IMG/VR virus record: IMGVR_UViG_3300034061_002899
Origin: a virus
Direction: 5' to 3' (one strand)
Length of the DNA: 64,000 nucleotides
Below the pieces are notes generated by a model. It ran no database searches, was not told the origin of the DNA, and worked only from the letters and a program-made list of their open reading frames with translations. Each line of letters begins with the position of its first letter. The first letter of the stretch is position 1. The position numbers were made by a program, and so were the translations under genes. Positions 18,331 to 29,962 of the stretch are shown here, piece by piece.

Positions 18331-19024
18331 ATAAATACTTCTCCAAATCTTCGGGAGTGCCTACCGGGTAAAATTCTGAATTTTGTATTCTGCATACTCC
18401 AATATCCATCCCCTCTTTTACTAGATAATTGTATGTAGGTGCTATGTAATATTCACCATTCGCTGATTTTTTACCATCGTTTATCATACGTTTTGCTGAT
18501 TCAAAAAAATATTTTGCATGTTTCCAATAGTGTATGCCGGTTAGTGCATGTTTGCTAATCACTTCCTTTTCAACAAATTGTATTGCAAAGCCATCTTCTA
18601 TTCTTACATAACTATGTTTTGGATCATTATCAGTTATTGTAACTACTGCCCCGTCATATGTTCTCATGTCAGAAATTACATCATATGCATTCCAATTCAT
18701 TATTTGATCACAATTTGCAATAATTAATTCATCATCTTTATTAATATAGTCTTCCATAATTAATGCGGATGCGGCAGCTCCATTGGGAGTATAATTAACT
18801 GAAACAATGTTTGGATCAGGACAGATGCTGTAAATTGCACCTATTGTTTGTTGCATGAATTCATTATTGCGAATAACAAAATGATACTTACCAGTAATCC
18901 CTAAACTTTCGATTGCTCTTACAATCATAGGCTTATCATTTATTGATATTAAGGGTTTAGGTAAACTGTGGGTATTTTTAAATCTACTACCTTCACCTGC
19001 CAATGGAATTAAAATATTAAGCAT
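18317..19024 (-). CDS. Sugar-phosphate nucleotidyltransferase
   Basis: AGEGSRF...PKPLI, NCDQ, EK, GEYY, GTPEDL. Confidence 0.85.
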   Translation of the reverse strand: MLNILIPLAGEGSRFKNTHSLPKPLISINDKPMIVRAIESLGITGKYHFVIRNNEFMQQTIGAIYSICPDPNIVSVNYTPNGAAASALIMEDYINKDDELIIANCDQIMNWNAYDVISDMRTYDGAVVTITDNDPKHSYVRIEDGFAIQFVEKEVISKHALTGIHYWKHAKYFFESAKRMINDGKKSANGEYYIAPTYNYLVKEGMDIGVCRIQNSEFYPVGTPEDLEKYLYDSR

Positions 19025-19120
19025 ACAACATATTTATATACAATATGATGTATTAAAATTTTGAGTAAATTACCATTCTGGATGGTTTGGCAGGCATCTA
19101 ATGATGCCCGCTATTATAGT

Positions 19121-19333
19121 TTATCGAATACGTCTTAAATAGTCTCTGCCAACAAGACCCTTTTCAATTTCCATCAATGCTGTAACTGTAGGACCTGCTT
19201 TAGTATTAAGTGTAGAACGATGTCCTCGCTTTAATTCTCTTACACGCTGTGCGGCAATGAGTACTAAATCAAACCGATTTCCAACTGCGTTGGCGGCTTC
19301 TTCACTTGTATAACGTGCTCTTGATTCTGTCAT
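19121..19333 (-). CDS. rpoZ: RNA polymerase omega subunit homolog
   Basis: AR.TSE.A...GNRFDLVLIAAQR.REL..G...P.VTAL.EI..G matches proteobacterial RpoZ. Confidence 0.9.
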   Translation of the reverse strand: MTESRARYTSEEAANAVGNRFDLVLIAAQRVRELKRGHRSTLNTKAGPTVTALMEIEKGLVGRDYLRRIR

Positions 19334-19358
19334 AGTTTCTTTCTTTGGTTGTAAAAAA

Positions 19359-19434
19359 TGGAGCGGGATAAGAGGCTCGAACTCTCGACCTATACCTTGG
19401 CAAGGTATCGCTCTACCAACTGAGCTAATCCCGC
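19359..19434 (-). tRNA. tRNA-Gly(GCC)
   Basis: Cloverleaf, GCC anticodon, TTCGA T-loop, encoded CCA. Confidence 0.95.
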
Positions 19435-19436
19435 AT

Positions 19437-19586
19437 TTAACTTGGTATCATTTTTGGCATATAAGGAACTGCTCTAGGTCCATGACGTTGTTGTAATAGC
19501 ATACGTGCTTCTTCAGCATTGTTTGCTCCTACTCTGTCTGTGAACTCTTTACCGTTCACTCTTACTGTTGCTTCAAATAATTTCAT
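19437..19586 (-). CDS. Small hypothetical protein
   Basis: MKLFEATVRVNGKEFTDRVGANNAEEARMLLQQRHG; start moved out of the tRNA. Confidence 0.65.
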   Translation of the reverse strand: MKLFEATVRVNGKEFTDRVGANNAEEARMLLQQRHGPRAVPYMPKMIPS

Positions 19587-19592
19587 AATGAT

Positions 19593-19668
19593 TGGTGGGT
19601 CGTGACAGGCTCGAACTGCCGACATTCTGCGTGTAAGGCAGACGCTCTACCAACTGAGCTAACGACCC
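19593..19668 (-). tRNA. tRNA-Val(TAC)
   Basis: Cloverleaf, TAC anticodon, CCA. Confidence 0.95.
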
Positions 19669-19678
19669 TTTATTTTAT

Positions 19679-19864
19679 TTAACCACCTTGTTCACTGTCT
19701 TTAACATTTCCCCAATCAATGACTGGCTTTTCTACATTCATGTCAGGGAGAGGAGGAGGAACGTATCGTTCTTTTGGTGGCTTCTTACCGAATATAGCAT
19801 CATGCTTATCGGCTAATTCCTCTAAACTTATACTAAATGGTCTTGGTCTACTACCTTTACTCAT
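19679..19864 (-). CDS. Hypothetical protein
   Basis: MSKGSRPRP N-terminus; AAGGA SD. Confidence 0.7.
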   Translation of the reverse strand: MSKGSRPRPFSISLEELADKHDAIFGKKPPKERYVPPPLPDMNVEKPVIDWGNVKDSEQGG

Positions 19865-19886
19865 TTGATTTCCTTTAAATTAAACT

Positions 19887-19963
19887 TGGTCGGAGTACAA
19901 GGATTCGAACCTTGGACCCCCTGGTCCCAAACCAGGTGCGCTACCAGACTGCGCCACACTCCG
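19887..19963 (-). tRNA. tRNA-Pro(TGG)
   Basis: Cloverleaf, TGG anticodon, CCA. Confidence 0.95.
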
Positions 19964-19990
19964 AATTATTTATAGCCCGATGTTATCGAA

Positions 19991-20626
19991 TCACTTTTTC
20001 CACAAGTGACTCACATCATCAGGCATTTTGTATTCATTTCGATATTGCAATATAGTAATATCATCATACTGATCTTTACCATTCCAAGGTGCACCTAATG
20101 CTAATGTAACCTTACATTCATCTGATGTGTTAATCATCCCGTGAGGGAAGCCACCATCCATTACAAATGCATGTTCTATATCAGGAGCAGATACTTTTCC
20201 TTTATCAGTAATCCAGTATAGTGTACTAGTATTACCTTGCAAAACAATTCTTATCTTATGTTGTAACGTGTTCAACTCATGGGGACTACAATCAATATGT
20301 TCGTTGTTTGCCCCACCTGGTTTTGTTATCAACGCCATTACTCTAGCTTTACAGCCTATCCAGGGAAAAATATAATCTTCAAACCAATCAACGATTACTG
20401 CAGGAGTATGACTAACCCAACAAAAGTCACCCGGTTGATTATTACTAGTTCCGTCGACACCTATCCCGCCTTTAGTGTTTAAAGGAAACATTTGTGTATG
20501 TCTATAGTTGTCCCAAAAACTTAACTTACTATCAAGTGCTAAAATTTCTTTGGAGGCTTTTTTCTTATCTAAGATGGGTATACCATCTATTCTAGCAAAC
20601 AACAAATTATCGGCTGGTTTAATCAT
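19991..20626 (-). CDS. Double-stranded beta-helix dioxygenase-like protein (Asp/Asn beta-hydroxylase-like)
   Basis: HID...H (PHG..N) facial triad pattern. Confidence 0.6.
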   Translation of the reverse strand: MIKPADNLLFARIDGIPILDKKKASKEILALDSKLSFWDNYRHTQMFPLNTKGGIGVDGTSNNQPGDFCWVSHTPAVIVDWFEDYIFPWIGCKARVMALITKPGGANNEHIDCSPHELNTLQHKIRIVLQGNTSTLYWITDKGKVSAPDIEHAFVMDGGFPHGMINTSDECKVTLALGAPWNGKDQYDDITILQYRNEYKMPDDVSHLWKK

Positions 20627-20635
20627 ATAATATAT

Positions 20636-21163
20636 TTATGTTAATAGAAACACTGGATCAATATCTGTAGCAACCGTCATACAGATTCTTGGAACTGTAT
20701 TCATATTTGTATGCACTCTATGTGGTTCTTGAACCCTAATTACTGTAGGTCTAATGATTTCAACCTCTGCTACCTTAGTAGGTATTGAATTATCTTTCAA
20801 TAAGTAATAAGGTATTCCATTCTGTTGAAAAAACATAGTATACTCACCACCTGAATAAAATTCAGTGCGTGAGCCTTCGCAATTCAAAATAGGAATATTG
20901 ATTCGACATTGTGATTTAAGATTACTCTTATAGTCAATATGAACTTTAGAATGTTCTTGTAGGAAGGTTACGTACAACGCAACTTTTTTTACCTTTAGAT
21001 TATAGTCTGCAAACGCAGACAATATTTCAGGACAATATTCAAGGTAGTCCTTATCTAGTAAGGAGAACCCTACTCTCACCGATGAATGATGTTCAAGAAA
21101 CTTTTTGGTCTTTTCTTGAATGACCTCAAAGTTTTGTATTTCAATCTGATTAAAATATTTCAT
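20636..21163 (-). CDS. Dioxygenase-like (cupin/2OG-Fe) protein
   Basis: HID, INIPI.NC, PH.V...R motifs. Confidence 0.6.
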   Translation of the reverse strand: MKYFNQIEIQNFEVIQEKTKKFLEHHSSVRVGFSLLDKDYLEYCPEILSAFADYNLKVKKVALYVTFLQEHSKVHIDYKSNLKSQCRINIPILNCEGSRTEFYSGGEYTMFFQQNGIPYYLLKDNSIPTKVAEVEIIRPTVIRVQEPHRVHTNMNTVPRICMTVATDIDPVFLLT

Positions 21164-21166
21164 ATT

Positions 21167-21241
21167 TGGATGCGGGTGACAGATTCGAACTGCCGATGCA
21201 CCTGGCTTATGAGACCGGTGTGGTGACCAACCCTACCCGCG
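21167..21241 (-). tRNA. tRNA-Met(CAT), initiator-like, atypical D-arm
   Basis: 5' CGCGGG with C1:A72 mismatch, CTCATAA loop, TTCGAAT, CCA; short D-arm. Confidence 0.75.
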
Positions 21242-21244
21242 TAA

Positions 21245-21313
21245 TTTATAAATGTATTTCTTTTTCACTTACAGAGCCAGTCTTATCAGCTGGGTATGAA
21301 ACACATTTATAAA
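21245..21313 (-). ncRNA. Long-stem hairpin element A
   Basis: 16-nt arms TTTATAAATGTGTTTC / GAAATACATTTATAAA (one G-U) just 5' of the tRNA. Confidence 0.55.
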
Positions 21314-21508
21314 GTGAGACTGCTACTACACCACATAGCCCAGTCTCTGAGTTGTTACACTGTCCACTTCTTCAATCTAGACGGTTAGAAGTCCGCCTTT
21401 GTGATTTTTCAAGTCGCTTTAAACAAGCCTTGCAGTAGATCCAATGCACTGTGCTATTAAGGTATTAGCAATTACCTAACTCTATTACGCTGAGTTAACG
21501 CGGGTTTA
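21314..21508 (-). ncRNA. Unassigned structured RNA, copy 1
   Basis: No ORF; several hairpins; shares UGGACAG.GUAAC..CUCA and GG/UAG internal-loop hairpin with 25861-26057. Confidence 0.55.
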
Positions 21509-21509
21509 T

Positions 21510-21585
21510 TGGTGGAGGATACCGGGATCGAACCGATGACCTACTGGTTGCAAACCAGTCGCTCTCCCAACTGAGCTAATCCCCC
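21510..21585 (-). tRNA. tRNA-Ala(TGC)
   Basis: Cloverleaf, TGC anticodon, G3-U70, CCA. Confidence 0.95.
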
Positions 21586-21972
21586 TCATCTCAGTAAGCC
21601 TCTACTTCCTCGTCCACTACCTTTATTCTTGGCAGCATATGATGCAGTTTGGCTATGACAGTTTGGACACAACAGCCTTACATTTTCAGGCATATTATTA
21701 CCAGCATTGCCATCTATATGATCTAACTGTAATGCTAACGGCACATTGTTATGTATTCCGTTATTACTACAACAAGCACATTTATATCCTGTTAGTTTTG
21801 TGATAATCTTATTCAGTGTCCGTCTATCTTTTACCTCACCTAAGTAAAATTTAGGCATAGTTAAATCTTTAAAAGTAAAATCAGCCTGACATTGATTGTC
21901 GCAAAACTTATTTTTATTATTACGCTTTACAGTGTTTTCTCTGTTACAGTGTAGGCAGTTAAATGTATTCAT
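21586..21972 (-). CDS. HNH endonuclease
   Basis: CxxC, LQLDHIDG...NN...N.RLLCPNCH. Confidence 0.9.
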   Translation of the reverse strand: MNTFNCLHCNRENTVKRNNKNKFCDNQCQADFTFKDLTMPKFYLGEVKDRRTLNKIITKLTGYKCACCSNNGIHNNVPLALQLDHIDGNAGNNMPENVRLLCPNCHSQTASYAAKNKGSGRGSRGLLR

Positions 21973-22051
21973 AGTATAATTCTTTGTAGTCCGTATACTA
22001 TTTATGCAAACGCTCTACATTTTGATATTTACCTACACCCCCAATATTCTT

Positions 22052-22128
22052 TGGTGCCCTAGGAGAGACTCGAACTCTCAGTTTACGGCTTCTAAGACCG
22101 CTGTGTCTACCAATTTCACCACCAGGGC
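22052..22128 (-). tRNA. tRNA-Leu(TAG), short variable arm
   Basis: Leu-type D-loop, CTTAGAA loop, CCA; no long variable arm. Confidence 0.85.
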
Positions 22129-22188
22129 ATTCATTTCAATACGTATTGTAACAGAGAACTATTTATCTGTCTACTGTTTTGGATAACT

Positions 22189-22262
22189 TGGAGCGGGGTA
22201 ACAGAATCGAACTGTCCGCATCAGATTGGAAATCTGAGGTATTACCACTATACGAACCCCGC
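22189..22262 (-). tRNA. tRNA-Gly(TCC)
   Basis: Cloverleaf, TCC anticodon, CCA. Confidence 0.95.
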
Positions 22263-23030
22263 TTATATATATTTTCTTTCACTTAACCAGGGCACAATAA
22301 CCTCATCAACAAATTCTTTATGCATCTCTGTTGTGGGGTGATGTGGACCTGTAAGAATATTCCATTCTTCAGGATTAGACTCTGCGTATTTTGAATTTTT
22401 TGATATCCAATTATACTGACTAGTTATAGGAAGATACTGCTCTGTATCAATTTGTTTATATAAGTAATCTATTTCAGGATGTGTTATATTTTCAGGCAGA
22501 ACAATATTATCGTCCATATAATTAGTAAAAAAATATTTAATATTTTTTGATTTTAGAAACCATTGTGTTTTCAATATATGCTCAATCGAATATATACTTG
22601 ATCCTATTTCATCATGGAACATTTTATAATATGTCATCGCTTCTTTATTATTTTCTGCCCAATTGGTATTAAGTATTACCCAATTTTTTGTACTATCTTT
22701 TACAAAACCAGTTGGATTTTCCATCCATCCATTATGTACTTTATCAGATACAAAATGTAATAAACCAGGTGATGTACATCTAAAGTCATGTCTATTAGAA
22801 CCACTCCACATAACACCTACTAGTATATCTTCTGGTTTATGTGTCTTTAGTGCTTCTAGTACACCATATATTATACTTCTACTTATAAGTCCGTTACCCT
22901 GACTACCCATTGCATAACTCTTATGATCATAGTCAGTTAATTCTTTAGATAAATGTATAGGCCACGCTTTATTTGCATAACTAATACATTCACTAAAACT
23001 ACAACCTGAGGTGATTAATAATTTTTTCAT
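22263..23030 (-). CDS. SGNH hydrolase-like protein
   Basis: GCSFS, GN..I, MWSG..R, HP...H motifs. Confidence 0.65.
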   Translation of the reverse strand: MKKLLITSGCSFSECISYANKAWPIHLSKELTDYDHKSYAMGSQGNGLISRSIIYGVLEALKTHKPEDILVGVMWSGSNRHDFRCTSPGLLHFVSDKVHNGWMENPTGFVKDSTKNWVILNTNWAENNKEAMTYYKMFHDEIGSSIYSIEHILKTQWFLKSKNIKYFFTNYMDDNIVLPENITHPEIDYLYKQIDTEQYLPITSQYNWISKNSKYAESNPEEWNILTGPHHPTTEMHKEFVDEVIVPWLSERKYI

Positions 23031-23040
23031 AAATATACTT

Positions 23041-23208
23041 ATGCACATTTACGATGCTATTACAAATTCCGGATTACACATCCATCTTTCAATGATGGAA
23101 GATGAATCCTTTTACATTATGGTACATGATCTTGTGAACTTCACTATGCAAATGAAGTTCTTTAGTAGCGTTGAGCCTGCTAGAGCATTTATTCAATCAC
23201 TAGAATAA
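23041..23208 (+). CDS. Small hypothetical protein
   Basis: ATG 23041 just after TAAATA; 55 aa. Confidence 0.5.
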   Translation: MHIYDAITNSGLHIHLSMMEDESFYIMVHDLVNFTMQMKFFSSVEPARAFIQSLE

Positions 23209-23210
23209 TT

Positions 23211-23284
23211 TGGCATCCCCCCAAGGATTCGAACCTTGACTAACGGTTTTGGAGACCGGTATGCTGCCATTACATTAGGGAGAT
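23211..23284 (-). tRNA. tRNA-Trp(CCA)
   Basis: Cloverleaf, CTCCAAA loop, G73 CCA. Confidence 0.9.
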
Positions 23285-23815
23285 ATTTAATTCTTTTAAT
23301 TTGTCTAAGTAATGTGATTGACCTTTACTGACCATTGAACGCCAGTCATTTAGTGAATCATCATTGGCTCCGTCACTAACAAACTTGTAACATAGAAACT
23401 CTACTTTATGTTTCCTGCATACTTTCGCAATAGCGTATGCTTCCATATCTACTACATCAGCAGGAATTAATAAGTTACTATCTGTGACAAAGTTATCACC
23501 TGTACTACAAGTTAATCCATCACCATTATCAATGATGATAGTATCTTCAAATGGTGTTTGACCTGGTAGACTACCTAACTCACAGCACATCATATCACGT
23601 TGAATAAACTTTGACACTTGATGGAATCCTGACTTAACAGTAACTCCACCTGCTGTACCAAAGTTGATAACACGATCAGGGTTGTACTTGGCAATCAACT
23701 CAGCCGCAGTCATTGCGGCATTTACTTTTCCTACACCTGTGTAAAATACTTTCATACTGAAAGCCATGTCAGGTGCTTCTTCTTTCAATGCAATTAATAT
23801 TAAATCTTTTTTCAT
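23270..23815 (-). CDS. mtnN: 5'-methylthioadenosine/S-adenosylhomocysteine nucleosidase-like protein
   Basis: GVGKVNAA, INFGTAG, TGD.F, DMEAYAIA, SD.A motifs. Confidence 0.8.
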   Translation of the reverse strand: MKKDLILIALKEEAPDMAFSMKVFYTGVGKVNAAMTAAELIAKYNPDRVINFGTAGGVTVKSGFHQVSKFIQRDMMCCELGSLPGQTPFEDTIIIDNGDGLTCSTGDNFVTDSNLLIPADVVDMEAYAIAKVCRKHKVEFLCYKFVSDGANDDSLNDWRSMVSKGQSHYLDKLKELNISLM

Positions 23816-23824
23816 AAATTCTCT

Positions 23825-23916
23825 TGGTGGAAACGGTGAGATTCGAACTCACGGGACGCATTAACATCCGACAGTTTTCAAGACTGTTGCAATAAACCGG
23901 GCTCTGCCACGCTTCC
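23825..23916 (-). tRNA. tRNA-Ser(TGA)
   Basis: Long variable arm, CTTGAAA loop, CCA. Confidence 0.95.
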
Positions 23917-24104
23917 TATTTTATTAGTATATCTACGTTTTGACCTTTAGCGGCAGGTTCTATTTTTCCTGTATTGTCGTAAAGGTATTGTATGACTTCT
24001 AAAACTGTTTTATTTGTCTTAGGATCTACTAGAGTACGATACTCGGTGTTGCGATATTGGTTATAAACCATATCCCAACTGTTTGTTATACTTTGTACTA
24101 TCAT
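23916..24104 (-). CDS. Hypothetical protein
   Basis: 62 aa, TAAATA just upstream. Confidence 0.55.
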   Translation of the reverse strand: MIVQSITNSWDMVYNQYRNTEYRTLVDPKTNKTVLEVIQYLYDNTGKIEPAAKGQNVDILIK

Positions 24105-24118
24105 ATAGTATTTATTAT

Positions 24119-24211
24119 ACCATATAGAAACACACTTTTAAACCTTTCTTCAGCGTTTAGTCGCTATCTCCCTTACTAATCGGGCGTAGGGTAAATGTGT
24201 TTTTATATGGT
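24119..24211 (-). ncRNA. Long-stem hairpin element B
   Basis: ACCATATAAAAACACA / TGTGTTTCTATATGGT arms enclosing two small hairpins; begins at the tRNA-Lys ACCA. Confidence 0.55.
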
Positions 24212-24281
24212 AGGAGTGTTCGGGAACGATCCGAATTTTACCGGTTAAAAGCCGGTTACTTCACCTTAAAGTTTCACTCCC
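24208..24281 (-). tRNA. tRNA-Lys(TTT), atypical T-loop
   Basis: CTTTTAA loop, acceptor stem and CCA intact; T-loop ATCGTTC instead of TTCGAAT. Confidence 0.75.
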
Positions 24282-24341
24282 ATAAGTCGTAATGATTGAT
24301 TTTACGTGCCAATCATAGACCTACGGAAGTCTATGATGACA

Positions 24342-24362
24342 CTATCGCTTACTGCGTTTCAT
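24342..24362 (-). other. Minigene MKRSKR with strong SD, followed by a hairpin
   Basis: AAAGGAAACGAC-ATG AAA CGC AGT AAG CGA TAG, then TCATAGAC/GTCTATGA hairpin. Confidence 0.45.
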
Positions 24363-24385
24363 GTCGTTTCCTTTGTTAAAAAATT

Positions 24386-24461
24386 TGGAGTGGGTGACAG
24401 GGGTCGAACCTGCATGTCACGGATTTGCAATCCGCTACCTAACCATTCAGTACACACCCAC
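24386..24461 (-). tRNA. tRNA-Cys(GCA)
   Basis: TTGCAAA loop, U73, CCA. Confidence 0.92.
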
Positions 24462-24470
24462 ATATTGCTC

Positions 24471-24666
24471 TGGCATCCCCCGGCGGTAATTATAGAGTAT
24501 CAAGACATGACGCTATCATACCCATCACACACTCCTTCCACCCGCTTCCCGAAACAGGGACCGTTCTCGCATTGCCAGCGGCCTTTGGGTTTAAAGACTA
24601 CCACCCGTAGCTGTCACGCTACTTCTCATCCTGTGGGTCACAGTATCCGGAGACACCCGGAACGTT
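24471..24666 (-). ncRNA. Unassigned GC-rich structured RNA
   Basis: GC-rich island with several hairpins; 3' end GGGGGATGCCA is identical to the tRNA-Trp 3' end. Confidence 0.5.
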
Positions 24667-24682
24667 CTTTTATAAATACAGT

Positions 24683-24865
24683 ATGGATATCCAAGACTGC
24701 ATTGATATAGTTGAAAAGTTGTTGCGTCAAAACAACCGTAATTATAAGGATAGCCACGAACAATTATTATATGAACGAGGTTACCTTACTGGTATGCTTG
24801 CTCGGATGATGATTGAAAATCCTATGTTTCGCAATGAAATCATAGACCGAGCAAAAAAGAAATGA
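24683..24865 (+). CDS. Hypothetical protein
   Basis: TATAAATA just upstream; helical 60-aa ORF. Confidence 0.6.
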   Translation: MDIQDCIDIVEKLLRQNNRNYKDSHEQLLYERGYLTGMLARMMIENPMFRNEIIDRAKKK

Positions 24866-24866
24866 T

Positions 24867-24954
24867 TGGTGGAGAGTGTGGGATTCGAACCCACGCACCC
24901 ATTGCTGGATGACAGATTAGCAATCTGTTGGTTTAACCACTCACCCAACTCTCC
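24867..24954 (-). tRNA. tRNA-Ser(GCT)
   Basis: Long variable arm, GCT anticodon, CCA. Confidence 0.95.
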
Positions 24955-24960
24955 TATACA

Positions 24961-25037
24961 TGGTGCCTCCGACAGGACTCGAACCTGTAACCAATGGATT
25001 ATGAGTCCACTGCTCTAACCAATTGAGCTACCGAGGC
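24961..25037 (-). tRNA. tRNA-CAT (Met or Ile2)
   Basis: Cloverleaf, CTCATAA loop, CCA; Met versus lysidine-Ile cannot be decided by eye. Confidence 0.9.
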
Positions 25038-25044
25038 GCTATTT

Positions 25045-25449
25045 TTAATTATTTCTTAAAACTTGTTCTCGCCTTTCTTTGACGATTTCATTTCTTTTAC
25101 TAACATCTTTTATTTTTTGTATATCCAAACAATCTCTAATACAATCGTCAGGTAATGCCATATTTTTTCTAACAAGTTTAGCAACTTCTAATTCATTTGG
25201 TAATAACCCGCGAAGGCCGTTAAAGGGTCTTTTCCACATTCCGTTATCTACTGCATGACAGGTTATACATGTATGATCGGGCATTGAAGGTCGCATGTCT
25301 CTAGCTAAATGATTACCTGTTAACTTAGAGCATACATAGTTATCTGTTACTGTGGGGTATTCTATACCACAACTATTAGTTGAGATTGGTTTTAATGTTG
25401 AACACCCGGTAAGTAAAAGAAACATTAATACTAAGCCTATTTTTTTCAT
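25045..25449 (-). CDS. Lipoprotein with CxxCH (putative c-type heme) motif
   Basis: Lipobox LTGC; CITCH. Confidence 0.6.
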   Translation of the reverse strand: MKKIGLVLMFLLLTGCSTLKPISTNSCGIEYPTVTDNYVCSKLTGNHLARDMRPSMPDHTCITCHAVDNGMWKRPFNGLRGLLPNELEVAKLVRKNMALPDDCIRDCLDIQKIKDVSKRNEIVKERREQVLRNN

Positions 25450-25485
25450 GTATCACCCTTTATATGGACAGAGAACTTAAAAATT

Positions 25486-25571
25486 TGGTGCGACTGGCCG
25501 GAATCGAACCGGCACGCTGTTACGGCGAGAGATTTTAAGTCTCTTGTGTCTACCTATTTCACCACAGTCGC
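25486..25571 (-). tRNA. tRNA-Leu(TAA)
   Basis: Long variable arm, TAA anticodon, CCA. Confidence 0.95.
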
Positions 25572-25619
25572 AAATCTTGTTATCATTATATATCATACAA
25601 TGATTGTAGTCAAATATTA

Positions 25620-25696
25620 TGGCGCACCGTAGGGGACTCGAACCCCTGGCCTCATGCGTGACAGGCATGCGATCTAACCAACTGATCTAACGGTGC
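25620..25696 (-). tRNA. tRNA-Asp(GTC)
   Basis: Cloverleaf, GTC anticodon, G73 CCA. Confidence 0.95.
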
Positions 25697-25768
25697 AAAA
25701 TCTGTGATAGTTTCTATACAACCCATTGAAACTAACAAACATTGAGTATATTGCTACACTATTTGTCT

Positions 25769-25852
25769 TGGTGGAGACGGTTGGAGTTGAACCAACAGTG
25801 CCGAAGCGGAAGATTTACAGTCTCCTGGGGTTACCAATTTTCCTACATCTCC
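25769..25852 (-). tRNA. tRNA-Tyr(GTA)
   Basis: GTA anticodon, variable arm, CCA. Confidence 0.93.
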
Positions 25853-25860
25853 AAAATTAG

Positions 25861-26057
25861 TATAAGCTACTTGTTTCCACACAAGCCCTTAATTGAGCGG
25901 TTACTCTGTCCATCTCATTTATTCAAAGTCTGTGTGCAGTGAGAATCTGCCTATCAGAGCCTGCGAGGGTATTTTTAATCCTCACGCTAACGGTTTTCTG
26001 CCACCGGATCTCTATCATTAATCAAACGCTATTTTAACGAAAATAGTAACGGGATAC
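25861..26057 (-). ncRNA. Unassigned structured RNA, copy 2
   Basis: No ORF; multiple hairpins; paralogous 3' core with 21314-21508. Confidence 0.55.
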
Positions 26058-26133
26058 TGGAGCTCGGTACGGGATTCGAACCCGTGTGAATGCCGTGAAA
26101 GGGCACTATCCTAGGCCACTAGATGAACCGAGC
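26058..26133 (-). tRNA. tRNA-Glu(TTC)
   Basis: Cloverleaf, TTC anticodon, CCA. Confidence 0.93.
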
Positions 26134-26137
26134 ATTA

Positions 26138-26265
26138 TGTTATTAGTTTTGCTGACGCACTATTTGCTATGTCTCAACGGAATTGGTGGCCACACTACCG
26201 TTTATCGTCATAGTTACGTAGGGTTGACGTTTACCCAAGGGCTTACATCAGCAAAACTAATAACA
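26138..26265 (-). ncRNA. Long-stem structured element C
   Basis: Perfect 18-bp arms TGTTATTAGTTTTGCTGA / TCAGCAAAACTAATAACA around a ~90-nt structured core. Confidence 0.6.
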
Positions 26266-26267
26266 CA

Positions 26268-26480
26268 CTATATGAAAACACACTATGGGAACTACTAAAC
26301 AAATAGTCAGTACCGTCTACTGATTCAATGTCATTCGTCATTACTGCCTAACTGCCCGTCACGTTCGTAACTTTCGTTATCATACGCTTCTTGTACTCTA
26401 TGCGAAGCCAGTCCGTCAACTGGTTATGCTTCCATAGAGTACCTAACGGATCAGGTAACCCTTAATATGTTTACATATAG
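26268..26480 (-). ncRNA. Long-stem multibranch element D
   Basis: CTATATGTAAACAT / GTGTTTTCATATAG closing stem; internal GTACTCTATG/CATAGAGTAC, GAAA tetraloop and TCAGTA/TACTGA stems. Confidence 0.6.
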
Positions 26481-26514
26481 AGCCCTGAACTTAACAGGGA
26501 TATATGAATTCTAA

Positions 26515-26526
26515 ATTTTAAAGAAC
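26515..26526 (-). promoter_or_regulatory. boxA-like antitermination site
   Basis: GTTCTTTAAAAT about 35 nt downstream of a promoter, resembling rrn boxA (TGCTCTTTAACA). Confidence 0.5.
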
Positions 26527-26566
26527 TTTGTTGAAATGTCTGATGACTTTCTCAACTCATGCTATG

Positions 26567-26595
26567 ATTGTATCATAACTTCCATTTGTTGTCAA
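26567..26595 (-). promoter_or_regulatory. Sigma70 promoter inside the tRNA array
   Basis: TTGACA-17 bp-TACAAT. Confidence 0.7.
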
Positions 26596-26648
26596 ATTCT
26601 TTTTTGTGTCTCTGTTTCCAAGAACTTGTTCAATCAATCTATAACTAG

Positions 26649-26677
26649 AGTATAGCACTAAACTGATTTATTGTCAA
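26649..26677 (-). promoter_or_regulatory. Sigma70 promoter inside the tRNA array
   Basis: TTGACA-ataaatcagtttagtgc-TATACT. Confidence 0.75.
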
Positions 26678-26681
26678 ATTT

Positions 26682-26756
26682 TGGTCCGGGGTACAGGAAT
26701 CGAACCTGTATTGACTGCTTAGAAGGCAGCTGTATTATCCATTATACTAACCCCAG
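26682..26756 (-). tRNA. tRNA-Arg(TCT)
   Basis: Cloverleaf, TCT anticodon, CCA. Confidence 0.93.
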
Positions 26757-26777
26757 ATAAATGTCTAACTTGCCTCT

Positions 26778-26806
26778 ATTATAGCAGAGAATTGATTTAT
26801 TGTCAA
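26778..26806 (-). promoter_or_regulatory. Sigma70 promoter for tRNA-Arg(TCT)
   Basis: TTGACA-ataaatcaattctctgc-TATAAT. Confidence 0.8.
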
Positions 26807-26827
26807 GTGTGACAATAACTATTTGAT

Positions 26828-26903
26828 TGGCTCCCCGACCTGGGCTCGAACCAGGGACCTACGGATTAACAGTCCGGTGCTCTACCAACTGAGCTATCGA
26901 GGA
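26828..26903 (-). tRNA. tRNA-Asn(GTT)
   Basis: Cloverleaf, GTT anticodon, CCA. Confidence 0.95.
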
Positions 26904-26908
26904 ATATT

Positions 26909-26983
26909 TGGTGCCCCAGGTTAGAATCGAACTAACTACCTACCGCTTACAAGGCGGGTGCTCTACCAGTGAGCTACAAGGGC
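26909..26983 (-). tRNA. tRNA-Thr(TGT)
   Basis: Cloverleaf, TGT anticodon, CCA. Confidence 0.95.
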
Positions 26984-27013
26984 TTTTGTCTTACGACTTG
27001 TTTATTTAACAGT

Positions 27014-27042
27014 ATTGTATCATAGGAAAACTTTTTTGTCAA
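27014..27042 (-). promoter_or_regulatory. Sigma70 promoter
   Basis: TTGACA-17 bp-TACAAT. Confidence 0.65.
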
Positions 27043-27043
27043 C

Positions 27044-27604
27044 CTATGATAATAATATTCTACTGTGTTTGGGAACACCGGCAAGCAAGTATTCCATTTG
27101 GTCTGCAAGAATAGTTCTATGTTGTAATATCATATTCTCGTAATGATTAGGTACGTAAGGTGCATAAATTAATTCCATACGTGCTTCTTTCAATGTCTTG
27201 TGACCTTTCTTGCTGTTACAATCTTTACAAGCTGTAACAACGTTCATCCAGGTGTTCTCACCACCTTTACTCTTTGGATGAATATGATCTCTACTTAGTA
27301 AGTGAAAGTTAGGAAAGTGTTCACCGCAGTAAGCGCATACATGTCTATCACGACCAAATAATGTTTTGTTAGTTAGTGCTACACAAGAATGTTTGTATGG
27401 GTTGAATCCGTGTCCTTTGATAGCAATAATACTAGTAGCTTCCAAGTAACTTAATGTACCGTCTTTTTGTATGCCACCACGATATTTAGCCACAATTTCC
27501 CCCATTGACCATGCTATGGCATCTTTTGCTTTATAGGTAATTGCGTCATCATTTGAGATCCACTGCCGGGGAACTCCTGAGATATCTAGTGCTAGAACAG
27601 CCAT
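27044..27604 (-). CDS. HNH endonuclease
   Basis: RD...CAYCG...DHIHPKSKGG...W.NVVTAC..CN..K; AAGGAG SD before ATG 27604. Confidence 0.9.
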   Translation of the reverse strand: MAVLALDISGVPRQWISNDDAITYKAKDAIAWSMGEIVAKYRGGIQKDGTLSYLEATSIIAIKGHGFNPYKHSCVALTNKTLFGRDRHVCAYCGEHFPNFHLLSRDHIHPKSKGGENTWMNVVTACKDCNSKKGHKTLKEARMELIYAPYVPNHYENMILQHRTILADQMEYLLAGVPKHSRILLS

Positions 27605-27652
27605 GTAAAACTCCTTTTCTGCTATTGTCACTAATTGTATTTAATGCCGTAT

Positions 27653-27727
27653 TGGCGGGTCCTGCAGGAATCGAACCCACATCCCGAAGTTCGAAGCATC
27701 GTATTCTATCCATTGAACTAAGGACCC
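27653..27727 (-). tRNA. tRNA-Arg(TCG)
   Basis: CTTCGAA loop, cloverleaf with one anticodon-stem mismatch, CCA. Confidence 0.88.
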
Positions 27728-27729
27728 AT

Positions 27730-27805
27730 TGGTACCAAGAGTTGGACTCGAACCAACCACACCTAGTGCTTCAAACTAGTGCTCTACCTGATGAGCTATC
27801 TTGGC
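27730..27805 (-). tRNA. tRNA-Phe(GAA)
   Basis: TTGAAGC loop, cloverleaf, CCA. Confidence 0.9.
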
Positions 27806-27812
27806 TTATAAA

Positions 27813-27961
27813 GGTGGGAGCCTAACTATCTTATTGTTAGTAAGCCTCGCTAGATTGTCTCGTATAGGCAAGTTTATACACCCATCAATCATACTATAGT
27901 GTCATCACAGTTAACCCCACGGTGACTAGATTGGCAGGGACTCGAACCTATCGTCTATCCC
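27813..27961 (-). ncRNA. tRNA-like structured RNA candidate
   Basis: 5' GGGA can pair with 3' TCCC-ACC; contains T-loop-like GGTTCGAGTCC near the 5' end; no ORF. Confidence 0.4.
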
Positions 27962-27978
27962 ATAAACTTTGAAAATTA

Positions 27979-28647
27979 TTATTTACTTTTATAAGGCAAC
28001 GTACACCACATGATTACAGCAGTTTTCGATTCTATGCCATTTTTAAGATAGTTATCGCTACAGTGCCATTTATATCGGCTGGCTGCCAACAATGAACCGG
28101 TCTTCCATGGGAAAACGGTTTCAATTGATAAGTATCTCATTTTTTCTCTCAACTCATATGAAAGGTATTTTTCATATGTTTCGTCATCTATAGAATCAAT
28201 GGGGTCTGCTTTTTGAATGTATTCGTCAATATTTTTACTAGTGGTATACCATTCATTAAAAATGACAGTATTAGAATCTACTGTTTCTAATGGAATAACA
28301 ACTGTATATGCACCATAGTGGTCATCATCTATTCCATATTCCCCATATATACCATCTATATGTGTTCGGTATGGAGTATATGATTCTAATATATGCATCC
28401 CACCTATAACTAAATCAGCTCCAAATTCTTTATGCATTTTTTCTCTTAATAACAAATCAGAATTTTTCATCGACGGATTATCTAATATTGACGTAATTTT
28501 ACATTCTAATTCATTTTCGGAATATGTTTCAGATATAGCGTTTGGATCTACGGTAATAGCTTCAAGTAAAATAGATTCAACCTCTGTATTAGATAAAAAA
28601 TTATCTATAACTCTAGTATCAACAATGGGTGGGTTAAGATTAATCAT
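27979..28647 (-). CDS. Dioxygenase-like (2OG-Fe/cupin) protein
   Basis: HID, VIPL, WH.S..K motifs; TATAAATA upstream. Confidence 0.6.
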   Translation of the reverse strand: MINLNPPIVDTRVIDNFLSNTEVESILLEAITVDPNAISETYSENELECKITSILDNPSMKNSDLLLREKMHKEFGADLVIGGMHILESYTPYRTHIDGIYGEYGIDDDHYGAYTVVIPLETVDSNTVIFNEWYTTSKNIDEYIQKADPIDSIDDETYEKYLSYELREKMRYLSIETVFPWKTGSLLAASRYKWHCSDNYLKNGIESKTAVIMWCTLPYKSK

Positions 28648-28670
28648 AATATAACTATTTATATAATGTT

Positions 28671-28748
28671 TGGCACCCCCTCAAGGATTCGAACCTCGGT
28701 GTGTCGGAATCAAAATCCGATGCCTTAGACCAACTTGGCGAAGGGGGT
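28671..28748 (-). tRNA. tRNA-Gln(TTG)
   Basis: Cloverleaf, TTG anticodon, G73 CCA. Confidence 0.92.
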
Positions 28749-28865
28749 ATTTTATCTTTAATAAAGAGACTCCTTGTACACATTACATAAATGTGTCCAT
28801 GCTTCAATTTCTTGTTTATGCTTTTCTACTGATTGATTCCAACTCATTTGAGTCTCCTTAAAATT

Positions 28866-28940
28866 TGGTACCGCCACCTGGACTTGAACCAGGGACCTAC
28901 GCCTTATCAAGGCGGTGCTCTACCACTGAGCTATAGCGGT
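28866..28940 (-). tRNA. tRNA-Ile(GAT)
   Basis: Cloverleaf, GAT anticodon, CCA. Confidence 0.95.
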
Positions 28941-28944
28941 GAAT

Positions 28945-29019
28945 TGGTGGATGTAAGTAGATTTGAACTACTGACCTGCTCCGTATGAAGGAGATGCACT
29001 ACCGCTGTGCTATACATCC
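28945..29019 (-). tRNA. tRNA-CAT (Met elongator or Ile2)
   Basis: TTCATAC loop, cloverleaf, CCA. Confidence 0.9.
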
Positions 29020-29020
29020 A

Positions 29021-29097
29021 TGGGGTGCTTGATGGGATTCGAACCCACGTATATCGGAATCACAATCCGAGGTCTTAACCGCTTGACGACAAGCACC
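29021..29097 (-). tRNA. tRNA-His(GTG)
   Basis: G-1:C73 pair, GTG anticodon, CCA. Confidence 0.95.
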
Positions 29098-29104
29098 ATA
29101 CTAT

Positions 29105-29181
29105 TGGTACGACCTAAGAGAGTTGAACTCCTGACCCCCAAGTTCGTAGCCTGGTGCTCTATCCATCTGAGCTAAGGTCGC
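29105..29181 (-). tRNA. tRNA-Arg(ACG)
   Basis: Cloverleaf, ACG anticodon, CCA; first tRNA of the array. Confidence 0.95.
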
Positions 29182-29253
29182 ATTCTAAAACATACTATGG
29201 CTTAACCTTTCAGGGGTCAGGGTACTGTTTACCCATAGTATGTTTTAGAATGC
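29180..29253 (-). ncRNA. Long-stem hairpin element E
   Basis: Perfect 21-bp inverted repeat GCATTCTAAAACATACTATGG / CCATAGTATGTTTTAGAATGC abutting the tRNA 5' end. Confidence 0.6.
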
Positions 29254-29400
29254 CGTGTATTTCTACACGACATGATAGGGTCGATACCCTATCCAGTAGT
29301 CTTACTTTTTGTGTTACCGCCACAAATTTCATGTGTACTGTCCGCCCATTCTATACATTTTGCGCTGTATTACGGCTCTCGTTGCCTATTCACGCTGTCA
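29254..29400 (-). ncRNA. Unassigned structured RNA candidate
   Basis: Run of hairpins (GATAGGG/CCCTATC, CGTGTA/TACACG, TTTGTG/CACAAA), a GGACAG motif, no ORF. Confidence 0.4.
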
Positions 29401-29568
29401 TCAATCAGTATAAGTTAGTTGGTTAACTTTCTTAGTAGCCTCTTGATAGACTTTAGCACGTTCAAGTTTATTTTCTATCAACCGTGCTACTTGCTCCTTA
29501 GTCAAAACATGATTGCTAAACCAATCTGTCTTGTCTTTAGAAGTTGTGTATTCTATCTGTTCATCCAT
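29401..29568 (-). CDS. Small helical protein (55 aa, not in ORF track), first ORF after the attenuator
   Basis: MDEQIEYTTSKDKTDWFSNHVLTKEQVARLIENKLERAKVYQEATKKVNQLTYTD; its start overlaps a promoter-like sequence. Confidence 0.5.
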   Translation of the reverse strand: MDEQIEYTTSKDKTDWFSNHVLTKEQVARLIENKLERAKVYQEATKKVNQLTYTD

Positions 29569-29591
29569 TTATTGTCAAATCCATTCTGTAT

Positions 29592-29630
29592 AAGTAAAAA
29601 CCCCTGAGACTTTTTAGTTTCCCAGGGGTT
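29592..29630 (-). terminator. Intrinsic terminator of the putative attenuator
   Basis: AACCCCTGGGA...TCTCAGGGGTT 11-bp stem followed by a U-rich tract. Confidence 0.8.
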
Positions 29631-29658
29631 AGATAAATTTAGTTATGATGTTAACTTG

Positions 29659-29796
29659 TTACCTAGTCCCCGGGCCATGTTCATTTGAATCATTGTAGCC
29701 ACGAATACTTGTTGGATATGCTGGTACAAAGGATACACTGGCTGTTGTCTGCCATTGCCCGTTATGCTTCAACATGTTACAAGTTTTATTCATCAT
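29659..29796 (-). CDS. Putative attenuator leader peptide containing all 20 amino acids (45 aa, not in ORF track)
   Basis: MMNKTCNMLKHNGQWQTTASVSFVPAYPTSIRGYNDSNEHGPGTR*; last codons and stop pair with the terminator 5' arm. Confidence 0.7.
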   Translation of the reverse strand: MMNKTCNMLKHNGQWQTTASVSFVPAYPTSIRGYNDSNEHGPGTR

Positions 29797-29872
29797 AGTC
29801 TTTTATTTAGTCCTGGTTTAAAATTAGTGCAAATTACATATGTTTTTTGCACCTTTTCTCAATTCATGCTGA

Positions 29873-29901
29873 AGTATAGCATAGCTAGGAATTGATGTCA
29901 A
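29873..29901 (-). promoter_or_regulatory. Sigma70 promoter upstream of the leader ORF and tRNA array
   Basis: TTGACA-tcaattcctagctatgc-TATACT. Confidence 0.8.
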
Positions 29902-29962
29902 CATTTTTTTAAAGCATGTTGCCCAAAAATTTTGTTTATGATTAGCCCGTATACCCTAGTTA

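Follow-up and report, generated by a model that had tools for sequence, protein, structure and literature searches.

Lakes and oceans commonly harbour phages that have nearly complete sets of tRNAs, and the reason for this carriage is debated. GOLLD and ROOL RNAs often adjoin tRNA genes in phage DNA. These 'ornate' RNAs of phages and prophages are orphan non-coding RNAs with intricate folds rich in pseudoknots (PMC12286853), features that the RNAs described here share. The rnaC and rnaD genes of phage T4 (species 1 and species 2 stable RNAs) also encode small stable RNAs of unknown function in a phage tRNA cluster, and the RNAs described here are probably like them in this. They come from a 64-kb stretch of viral DNA, referred to below as the window.

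Two RNA elements and their relatives

The first-pass annotation of this DNA had reported two RNAs on the minus strand, each 3′ of a tRNA. This was confirmed, with RNA1 following tRNA-Ala and RNA2 following tRNA-Glu. The limits it gave, 21314-21508 and 25861-26057, were right in placement and could be replaced by better boundaries.

21309..21508, minus strand: RNA1 (type-A paralogue, ~200 nt), covariance models R1 and R2
25853..26057, minus strand: RNA2 (type-B paralogue, ~205 nt), models R1 and R2; row 1 of type-B alignment A6
21510..21585, minus strand: tRNA-Ala(UGC), directly upstream of RNA1
26058..26133, minus strand: tRNA-Glu(UUC), directly upstream of RNA2
25769..25852, minus strand: tRNA-Tyr(GUA), its 5′ end abutting the RNA2 3′ end

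RNA1 begins 1-4 nt past the CCA of tRNA-Ala, and RNA2 occupies the whole gap between tRNA-Glu and tRNA-Tyr. R1 and R2 are covariance models of 210 model positions, each built on a complementary set of helices. RNA1 scored 128.7 bits with R1 (E ~1e-29, model positions 1-210) and 118 bits with R2. RNA2 scored 64.7 bits over its full length with R1 (E ~1e-13) and 59.7 bits with R2 (E 3e-16). That both models found both copies at full length indicates that RNA1 and RNA2 are paralogues along their entire length. A core common to both copies had been recognized before; the likeness runs further, and the two align over all 210 model positions.

The conserved 3′ part of the two RNAs consists of the following features.

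21348..21366, minus strand: RNA1 invariant core UGGACAGUGUAACAACUCA, exact motif match, family-wide invariance
25894..25912, minus strand: RNA2 invariant core UGGACAGAGUAACCGCUCA, exact motif match, family-wide invariance
21316..21347, minus strand: RNA1 hairpin J (J1, J2; GG / UAG internal loop; terminal loop UGUGGUG), 10/10 pairs
25862..25893, minus strand: RNA2 hairpin J (J1, J2; GG / UAG internal loop; terminal loop UGUGGAAA), 9/9 pairs, covariation within type B

The 19-nt core TGGACAGnGTAACnnCTCA has exactly two copies in the 64-kb window. Shuffled sequences are expected to give 0.03, and none of 100 shuffles gave two matches. Only 25 positions are invariant in the family, 17 of them inside the core (UGGACAGrGUAACnrCUCA), whose two variable positions covary (A..G, G..A, U..A). 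The stems of hairpin J differ between the copies and stay paired, as had been claimed (GAGACUG/CAGUCUC versus UAAG/CUUA; CUA/UAG versus CUUG/CAAG), and the GG / UAG internal loop and the GUGG-containing terminal loop were also as described. These stems were 90-99.8% paired with many double substitutions across 72-106 distinct homologues; in alignment A4, J1 was 99.8% and J2 99.6% paired family-wide. Conservation at the sequence level is that of the 3′ domain, i.e. the core and the GG / UAG internal loop. The pseudoknot chain described below is conserved only structurally.

IMG/VR contained at least 120 exact core matches. Of 120 loci that were retrieved, 119 had the same hairpin downstream, with compensatory changes. 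Models R1 and R2 each returned 107-108 full-length members, both window copies included. The RNA family occurs widely among large uncultured phages, in their arrays of tRNA genes. These phages are very divergent, with genomes of 162-345 kb. Three near-complete genomes carried 2, 2 and 1 copies. Phage genomes seem to have either one paralogue or two diverged ones, of types A and B, and the window has one of each. In 596 Gb of prokaryote genomes there was one real copy, on one contig. We found no match by blastn in 50,697 GenBank phage records, no cultured phage carrying the RNA among the phage records searched, and no match to the core motif in the literature searched.

A scan of the whole window with the 4227 models of Rfam 15 at gathering scores returned tRNAs only. 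At E ≤ 10, a scan of positions 19000-30000 found nothing inside either element except a YrlA match of 19.3 bits (gathering score 69), which mostly covers tRNA-Ala. The models included those of RNase P, tmRNA, riboswitches, self-cleaving ribozymes, GOLLD, ROOL, HEARO and YrlA, and no family matched either element. The first-pass annotation could place the RNAs neither with RNase P or tmRNA nor among riboswitches or known ribozymes, and this holds, with no Rfam 15 match and no ARAGORN tmRNA. Judged by these comparisons, the family appears to be new, matching no RNA in Rfam 15.

A closed chain of predicted pseudoknots

The structure proposed at first comprised the 3′ third of the RNA. That part stood, and the complete RNA is predicted to be a chain of five pseudoknots. 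Covariation backs 14 helices, and these show a predicted fold of five interlocked H-type pseudoknots: K/J, A/B, C/D, E/F around hairpin G, and H/I. A/B, C/D, E/F and H/I follow one another almost without linkers. By the same covariation, pseudoknot K is shown to join the predicted 5′ end to the 3′ hairpin loop, which closes the chain.

21503..21505, minus strand: RNA1 K, 5′ strand ACC, with GGU at 21330-21332 (J terminal loop), 3/3 pairs
26052..26054, minus strand: RNA2 K, 5′ strand UCC, with GGA at 25876-25878 (J terminal loop), 3/3 pairs
21477..21502, minus strand: RNA1 pseudoknot 1, stem A (21499-21502 / 21488-21491) interleaved with stem B (21493-21497 / 21477-21481)
21452..21476, minus strand: RNA1 pseudoknot 2, stem C (21473-21476 / 21461-21464) interleaved with stem D (21468-21470 / 21452-21454)
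21399..21451, minus strand: RNA1 pseudoknot 3, hairpin E (21447-21451 / 21433-21437) with hairpin G (21410-21432) nested
21440-21444 with 21399-21403, minus strand: RNA1 stem F, its first strand in the E loop
21367..21398, minus strand: RNA1 pseudoknot 4, hairpin H (21392-21398 / 21379-21385)
21387-21391 with 21367-21371, minus strand: RNA1 stem I, from the H loop to the segment immediately 5′ of the core
25912..26051, minus strand: RNA2 pseudoknots 1-4
26049-26051 / 26038-26040, minus strand: RNA2 stem A
26042-26046 / 26029-26033, minus strand: RNA2 stem B
26025-26028 / 26016-26019, minus strand: RNA2 stem C
~26021-26023 / 26007-26009, minus strand: RNA2 stem D
26003-26006 / 25991-25994, minus strand: RNA2 stem E
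~25997-26000 / 25955-25958, minus strand: RNA2 stem F
~25947-25950 / 25936-25939, minus strand: RNA2 stem H
~25941-25945 / 25912-25916, minus strand: RNA2 stem I

K was 91.4% paired family-wide, with AU 44 times, UA 43 times and CG 4 times at its outer pair (alignment A5); its variants run from ACC/GGU to UCC/GGA to CCU/AGG. Stem B was 95.5-95.8% paired with double changes at all five pairs, stem A 70.6% (alignment A5), stem C 80-90% and stem D 76-86%. Stem F, which is absent from model R1, was still 84% paired with double changes at 5/5 pairs. Stem I was 79% paired when unfitted by the model and 80-89% when fitted. Helices omitted from a model still covaried, namely F, I and C in A4 and B, D, E and J in A5. 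In type B proper, F and H are invariant, which limits their backing within that type to analogy and divergent B-like members.

In alignment A4, 83.6% of the cells were paired, compared with 65.4% after shuffling. The covariation score was 0.518 versus 0.196 for shuffled alignments, and none of 500 shuffles reached the observed score; slid controls gave 0.06-0.15. Observed and shuffled values for alignment A5 were 83.2% and 63.2% paired, with covariation of 0.452 and 0.163. For the RNA2 class, an unfitted MAFFT alignment gave 93.9% versus 86.7% paired and 0.216 versus 0.099 for covariation. The first-pass annotation had taken conserved loops with compensated stems as the sign of a functional structured-RNA family; with well over 100 members and strong covariation, the idea gained support. 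Single-sequence folding of the two elements (z = -1.05 and -0.02) was uninformative because pseudoknots dominate the fold.

Genomic context and possible function

In most loci, 132-159 nt separate the end of the preceding tRNA from the core, and in dozens of loci there are 59-60 nt from the core start to the next tRNA. The RNA usually occupies the entire tRNA-to-tRNA gap, and its neighbouring genes are all co-oriented with it. No intrinsic terminator was found on the array strand in the 64-kb window. Most tRNA junctions in the same arrays are without such an element, and gaps of 1-7 nt are common. Several more conserved ORF-free modules were observed in the tRNA arrays that carry the RNA. A minority of loci have the RNA without direct tRNA flanks. 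One of them, L027, lacks tRNAs throughout its 12.8 kb; there the RNA begins 11 nt past a consensus promoter of its own (TTGACA-18-TATAAT, 12/12 positions). The protein genes 3′ of the RNA vary by locus (membrane protein, parvulin-type isomerase), and at some loci the RNA forms a 5′ leader ~15-20 nt ahead of a ribosome-binding site.

This arrangement suggests that the RNA and the phage tRNAs would be co-transcribed as one polycistron, from which host tRNA-processing nucleases would excise the RNA. RNase P, by cutting where the next tRNA begins, would create the RNA 3′ end; for RNA2, this cleavage would fall at the 5′ end of tRNA-Tyr. The 5′ end would arise when an endonuclease cuts past the CCA of the tRNA before it and the remainder is trimmed, and pseudoknot K may then hide this end. 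As some loci have no directly flanking tRNAs, release by tRNA processing cannot be the sole route.

Taken as a whole, the comparative data indicate that each element is probably the gene of a stable and compact non-coding RNA, ~200 nt long and with a five-pseudoknot fold; our best guess is that tRNA processing releases it and that it acts in trans. Conceivably, the pseudoknot chain of the released RNA serves as a rigid scaffold on which the invariant core is offered to a partner. We would guess at a protein or an RNA, from host or phage, that belongs to the machinery of translation or RNA processing. The search for an obligate protein partner gave none: the commonest neighbour proteins were absent from complete RNA-bearing genomes or present in RNA-less phages. 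It counts against this reading that ribozymes and ligand sensors could just as well be compact, built wholly of pseudoknots and equipped with a small invariant pocket.

A ribozyme might be self-cleaving and help to cut the tRNA polycistron, like the theta/HDV-like ribozymes found behind phage tRNAs, or act in trans on tRNAs or other RNAs, with the core and the GG / UAG loop as the active site. The pseudoknot-dominated fold and the small invariant unpaired core are consistent with this, and so is the confinement of the RNA to phages with very large tRNA sets, where it begins a few nucleotides past a tRNA CCA and stops at a tRNA 5′ end. However, both borders are already explained by host RNase P and 3′-end processing, and the RNA is also found away from tRNAs with its own promoter (L027). 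It is much larger, at ~200 nt, than the known small self-cleaving classes, and no Rfam ribozyme matched even at E ≤ 10. We consider a ribozyme quite unlikely. A cis-acting structural module, which would insulate tRNAs, or block exonucleases and stabilize the flanking transcript, without any function as a free RNA, also seems decidedly doubtful. A spacer or roadblock needs no 17 invariant unpaired nucleotides across phages as divergent as these (162-345 kb), nor two diverged paralogues kept per genome, and most junctions of the same arrays do without it (1-7 nt gaps being common). Such a module would nevertheless fit the occupation of whole spacers, the other ORF-free modules of the arrays, the leader position ~15-20 nt before a ribosome-binding site in some loci, and the burial of the 5′ end in a pseudoknot, a trait of exonuclease-resistant RNAs.

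The core can also be drawn as helix 44 of 23S rRNA (G-C closing pair, 2-nt bulge, A-U, G-C, covarying closing pair, GUAAnn hexaloop). In a manual comparison, 13 of 17 core positions equalled E. coli 23S 1087-1103, with the covarying positions at the place of the C1092-G1099 pair and an A-rich linker upstream resembling the 1067 loop. The RNA might then mimic the L11-binding GTPase-associated centre and titrate a ribosomal protein, a translation factor or an agent targeting that site. This is very improbable, as an unbiased local alignment of six members with E. coli rrnB missed the region, its best scores lying within the shuffle distribution; an unrelated exact 10-mer elsewhere in RNA1 matched the same rRNA helix by chance, and the Rfam LSU rRNA models gave no local match. 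In 24 of 119 loci, a 470-aa DUF2828/DUF7788 (vWA-type) protein is encoded no more than a few kb away, and in L009 it lies immediately upstream of the RNA; this suggested that the RNA might resemble Y RNA and partner a Ro60-like or vWA protein. However, neither the window nor three complete RNA-bearing genomes encode this protein, which had no sequence relative in the PDB at E ≤ 1. The RNA has neither a terminal Ro-binding stem nor a tRNA-like domain, and the only YrlA matches lay on tRNAs and scored 19-24 bits, where the gathering score is 69. The position just ahead of a gene start in a few loci might suit a riboswitch-like ligand sensor; the genes that follow are not the same from locus to locus (membrane protein, parvulin-type isomerase, tRNAs), however, and no expression platform was visible. 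Both ideas are largely refuted and hardly credible.

A bolder reading would make the RNA a new catalytic or RNP-core class, brought together with a full tRNA set by large lytic phages. It would serve in the processing, modification, protection or redirection of tRNAs or of the translation apparatus, its five-pseudoknot ring holding a 19-nt active or recognition site. We think this rather unlikely. A second kind of gene travels in phage tRNA arrays, an RNA with well over 100 members and 25 invariant nucleotides, and the 'spacers' of these arrays are gene-dense in RNA. The closed five-pseudoknot topology is unusual. Its size of ~200 nt and well-determined secondary structure make the RNA tractable for cryo-EM, chemical probing and pull-downs, and its function could reveal what phages do to host translation or RNA processing beyond codon supply.

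Comparison with known RNA classes

Several classes were rejected. No RNase P model matched at E ≤ 10; the core bears some likeness to CR-V, which together with CR-I forms helix P4 of RNase P RNA, and no partner strand was found for it. For bacterial Y RNA (YrlA)/Ro60, the 5′ end pairs with the J loop and not with the 3′ end, there was no TROVE match, and the vWA-type neighbour was absent from complete genomes. A type III antitoxin (ToxI-like, with tandem direct repeats of ~34-45 nt beside a toxin gene) was dismissed since neither element contains a tandem repeat, and the five pseudoknots are not copies of each other.

Like the new RNA, theta/HDV-like ribozymes are pseudoknotted and start immediately 3′ of a phage tRNA. 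Self-cleaving ribozyme models (theta/HDV-like and others) gave no match at E ≤ 10, and the new RNA is 3-4 times larger, has another topology, abuts the 5′ end of the next tRNA as well, and occurs without tRNAs. It differs from GOLLD and ROOL in being 3-4 times smaller, with no Rfam match at either element. The arc PK1-PK4 of tmRNA is similar in its consecutive H-type pseudoknots of ~25-40 nt each, conserved in structure and not in sequence. tmRNA itself was rejected, with no ARAGORN tmRNA in the window and no Rfam tmRNA match. The new RNA has no tRNA-like domain, tag reading frame or ARAGORN call, whereas its chain is closed by a fifth pseudoknot and it carries the invariant 19-nt core.

With T4 rnaC and rnaD there was no homology in sequence or structure. 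The core motif is absent from them, and model R1 found no match in the T4 tRNA region (L121) at E ≤ 1. The T4 RNAs are 119 and 139 nt long, rnaC having a T-arm-like 3′ hairpin, whereas the new family is ~200 nt, consists of pseudoknots throughout and has no tRNA-like part. The likeness is one of arrangement: in the T4 annotation, as in the window, the RNA genes are co-oriented with tRNAs and abut them, and there are two per genome, presumably freed by tRNA-processing enzymes.

An RNA family in phage DNA

On the transcribed strand, the two stretches flagged in the first-pass annotation indeed each come immediately after a tRNA, one after tRNA-Ala and the other after tRNA-Glu. The core sequence that they were said to share, TGGACAGnGTAACnnCTCA, has exactly two occurrences in the window (21348-21366 and 25894-25912), whereas 0.03 copies would be expected from shuffled sequences.

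21309-21508, minus strand: RNA1 (type A), after tRNA-Ala
25853-26057, minus strand: RNA2 (type B), after tRNA-Glu

In a pairwise alignment of RNA1 and RNA2, the likeness continued beyond the core over the whole length. A motif scan of IMG/VR on 16 specified bases of the core revealed at least 120 loci. Among the 120 loci listed, 119 also had the hairpin that had been noticed after the core. In these 119 loci, the motif is followed by an outer stem, GG, an inner stem, a loop containing UGG, UAG and the outer stem again; both stems vary freely yet keep pairing. As a control, we searched 596 Gb of bacterial and archaeal genomes with the same motif pattern and obtained 54 matches. By covariance model, only one of them was a true member; it lies on a contig of 3 kb that had been binned into a cyanobacterial MAG from a lake. 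Therefore, the RNA family is real, large and essentially confined to phage DNA.

The window itself comes from a large phage that is uncultured and has a baseplate of the contractile-tail type. Its NrdA is at most 60% identical to those of cultured phages, the top ones being Xanthomonas phage BUDD, Ralstonia RSP15 and Stenotrophomonas Moby. Covariance-model searches of the whole genomes of these three nearest cultured relatives found nothing, and blastn in "distant" mode with both types gave no match in 50,697 GenBank phage records. Three near-complete genomes carrying the RNA (345, 162 and 214 kb) have one, two and two copies among them. Two of the fetched loci, L116 and L097, resemble the window in having one type A copy and one type B copy each.

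Both copies in the window are situated in a tRNA array with scattered small ORFs, which include two HNH endonucleases and a PNP_UDP-type protein. Outside the array, the window codes for ribonucleotide reductase, a baseplate or tail-fibre protein and a very long ORF.

Main features of the window
Between 19359 and 29181, all on the minus strand: 26 tRNA genes (ARAGORN/Rfam)
21586-21972, minus strand: HNH homing-endonuclease-type ORF between tRNA genes (Pfam HNH, E = 2e-4)
27044-27631, minus strand: HNH homing-endonuclease-type ORF between tRNA genes (Pfam HNH_5, E = 1.7e-17)
49502-60646, minus strand: single 3714-aa ORF

Covariation and the pseudoknotted fold

Single-sequence MFE folding gave no signal for either copy (z = -1.05 and -0.02), because the fold is made of pseudoknots. 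The helices, named A to K, were found by hand from alignments before any model was built. We then used two covariance models fitted on complementary helix sets, so that the helices left out of one model could be scored in its alignment. R1 was built from 58 type-A sequences with the nested helices only (B, D, E, G, H and J, the last being the 3′ hairpin after the core). It found 107 full-length matches in the window and 99 loci, and scored RNA1 at 128.7 bits and RNA2 at 64.7 bits, both across model positions 1-210. In the R1-derived alignment of 72 distinct sequences, 83.6% of the cells were paired, compared with 65.4% in shuffles. The covariation score was 0.518 against 0.196 after shuffling; none of 500 shuffles reached it, and slid controls gave 0.06-0.15. 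Stems C, F and I, which are outside R1, were paired at 80%, 84% and 79%, with double substitutions in 3/4, 5/5 and 5/5 of their pairs, respectively.

R2, fitted on helices K, A, C, F, G and I, found 108 matches. Its alignment contained 106 distinct sequences of all types, and the unfitted helices were again mostly paired (B 95.5%, J2 93.8%, J1 89.8%, E 85.2% and D 76.3%). Helix H was the exception, with 54.5% in this alignment, where it is poorly aligned, and about 70% in the R1-derived one. Helix K, in which nucleotides 3-5 pair with the terminal loop of J, was paired at 91.4%. At the outer pair of K, 44 sequences have A-U, 43 have U-A and four have C-G, and single members have UCCC/GGGA, CCUC/GAGG, CCUCG/CGAGG or UUCUGG/CUAGAA. 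For the class of RNA2, we aligned 42 type-B and B-like sequences by plain MAFFT, RNA2 being the first row, and the same helices were backed (93.9% of cells paired versus 86.7% shuffled; covariation 0.216 versus 0.099). Stems F (CAGA/UCUG) and H are invariant in type B proper, and UCUG has an alternative partner, so this part of RNA2 is the least certain.

Three other pairings were rejected. The GUAAC of a long-range GUUAC/GUAAC pairing is invariant, and the 5′ GUUAC is swapped in many type-A members without compensation. In the type-B CACACAG/UUGUGUG pairing, J2 shifts from CUUG to CUGG while CACACAG is unchanged. The UGG of the J loop might have bound the CCA ends of tRNAs, but the loop covaries instead with the RNA's own 5′ end.

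The fold consists of five pseudoknots that interlock: K/J, A/B, C/D, E/F (with hairpin G inside it) and H/I. In A/B, C/D and E/F, the second stem is followed immediately by the first stem of the pseudoknot after it, and stem I leads straight into the core. Because K ties the 5′ end to the 3′ hairpin, the chain is closed. Both elements are conserved genes for a structured RNA with this five-pseudoknot fold.

Conservation of at least 97% is seen at only 25 consensus positions, and 17 of them are in the core, UGGACAGrGUAACnrCUCA. The others are mostly in the GG/GUaGC internal loop of J, together with the K-pairing G of the J loop. Two variable positions of the core covary non-canonically (A..G, G..A and U..A), which points to a small local hairpin whose loop is GUAACn. 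It looks as if the first two-thirds of the RNA is a scaffold and the last third the business end.

Neighbors of the RNA

We ran ARAGORN over the 120 listed loci and found as many as 36 tRNAs per 14 kb. The distance from the end of the nearest upstream same-strand tRNA to the core is 132-159 nt in most of these loci, and that from the core start to the next tRNA start is 59-60 nt in dozens of them. With such spacing on either side, the RNA takes up one complete "tRNA slot" of about 195-210 nt. The neighboring genes are all co-oriented with it. The RNA is not bound to tRNA neighbors. At locus L027, there is no tRNA within 12.8 kb, and the RNA lies between two protein genes behind a perfect promoter (TTGACA-18-TATAAT) ending 11 nt upstream of it. 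On the minus strand, the array of the window has several strong sigma-70-like promoters (e.g. 26806-26778, scoring 12/12), and no terminator-like site was found on that strand of the array, which fits polycistronic transcription.

Other modules were observed in these arrays. At 21170-21241 (minus strand), a degenerate tRNA-like gene whose anticodon is CAU was missed by ARAGORN in the window and scored 18.6 bits with the Rfam tRNA model (cut-off 29). In L007, L100, L116, L065 and L084, a tRNA-Met(CAT) is called by ARAGORN at this same distance from the core (+128). Between it and RNA1, at 21242-21308 (minus strand), is a 67-nt long-stem hairpin cassette with 92-96% identity in L007, L100, L116 and L061. 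Just 3′ of B-like or C-type RNA copies, L001 and L119 have a common short stretch starting with AUGGAyAGUGACAAGAGUGGUAA. It sits behind a Shine-Dalgarno-like sequence and is a tiny ORF or else one more RNA module. Five further segments of the window array had no match in Rfam; they are probably more uncatalogued RNA genes.

ORF-free, G+C-richer segments of the window array, with the number of fetched loci in which each is conserved
19435-19592: 11 loci
24105-24207: 10 loci
24282-24385: 15 loci
24462-24682: 24 loci
26134-26330: 14 loci

Protein partners were sought in a census of ORFs in 119 loci and in the genome-wide co-occurrence of the RNA with protein families in five genomes.

Protein families near the RNA in 119 loci
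Metallophosphoesterase, about 200 aa: 48/119 loci; directly upstream of the RNA in L027 and L068
RpoZ/Rpb6-like protein, 70-76 aa: 45/119 loci; window 19121-19333, minus strand
DSP/PTP-like phosphatase: 41/119 loci
DUF2828/DUF7788 vWA-type protein, 470 aa: 24/119 loci; e.g. L048:969-2381, minus strand

The metallophosphoesterase is present in all three near-complete genomes with the RNA (67-76% identity). It was rejected as a partner since homologues with 36-39% identity also occur in phages lacking the RNA. The vWA protein has 59-90% identity across the tRNA regions of many of these phages and no sequence relative in the PDB. It is absent from the window, and both it and the DSP/PTP-like phosphatase were rejected because they are missing from the same three genomes. 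The 70-aa ORF in the window matches the RNA polymerase omega/Rpb6 family (PF01192, E = 1.7e-11), and its homologues lie at distances between a few hundred bases and a few kb from the RNA. To our knowledge, a phage-encoded omega-like subunit beside a tRNA array is unusual. Across the 119 loci and the near-complete genomes, no obligate protein partner emerges.

Possible working and relation to known RNAs

Considering the exact abutment to tRNAs and established tRNA processing, we infer that the 3′ end of the RNA would be made when RNase P cuts the 5′ end of the downstream tRNA, and the 5′ end by endonucleolytic cleavage behind the CCA-encoding upstream tRNA. Pseudoknot K might then sequester the new 5′ end. 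Our guess is that the free RNA works in trans, with the invariant core acting on some component of either translation or RNA metabolism.

Other explanations are that the RNA works as a ribozyme, insulates or stabilises in cis, mimics rRNA, or has a Y-RNA-like or riboswitch role. We rejected the riboswitch role since the genes following the RNA vary between loci (parvulin-like in L068 and L074, a small membrane protein in L027). Mimicry of rRNA was considered because, by eye, the core is like helix 44 of 23S rRNA, in the GTPase-associated centre, at 13 of 17 positions and in its layout of a bulge and a hexaloop. An unbiased alignment with shuffles did not support it: in local alignments of six members with the E. 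coli rrnB operon, helix 44 was not singled out and all scores were within the shuffle range. The likeness may serve as a weak lead. A trans-acting RNA is the reading that we prefer.

The Rfam scan proposed in the first-pass annotation, run here with Rfam 15, gave no match at either element, whether at gathering scores or, with permissive filters, at E ≤ 10. ARAGORN found no tmRNA in the window. The resemblance of the core to RNase P CR-V was dismissed, as there was no Rfam model match and no partner strand. Across 8.4 million papers and preprints, the core strings occurred only as unrelated primers. In a survey of IMG/VR from 2023, 10,006 viral candidate RNAs are reported, with motifs of 29-151 nt, and 8,495 of the candidate motifs in it are unnamed; a fragment of our RNA could be among them. 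No tandem repeats were found in RNA1 or RNA2, and thus the family differs from ToxI-like arrays. R1 had no match in the T4 tRNA region (8 kb), which includes rnaC and rnaD. These two T4 RNAs are without the core motif, but they occupy the same genomic niche as the RNA family.
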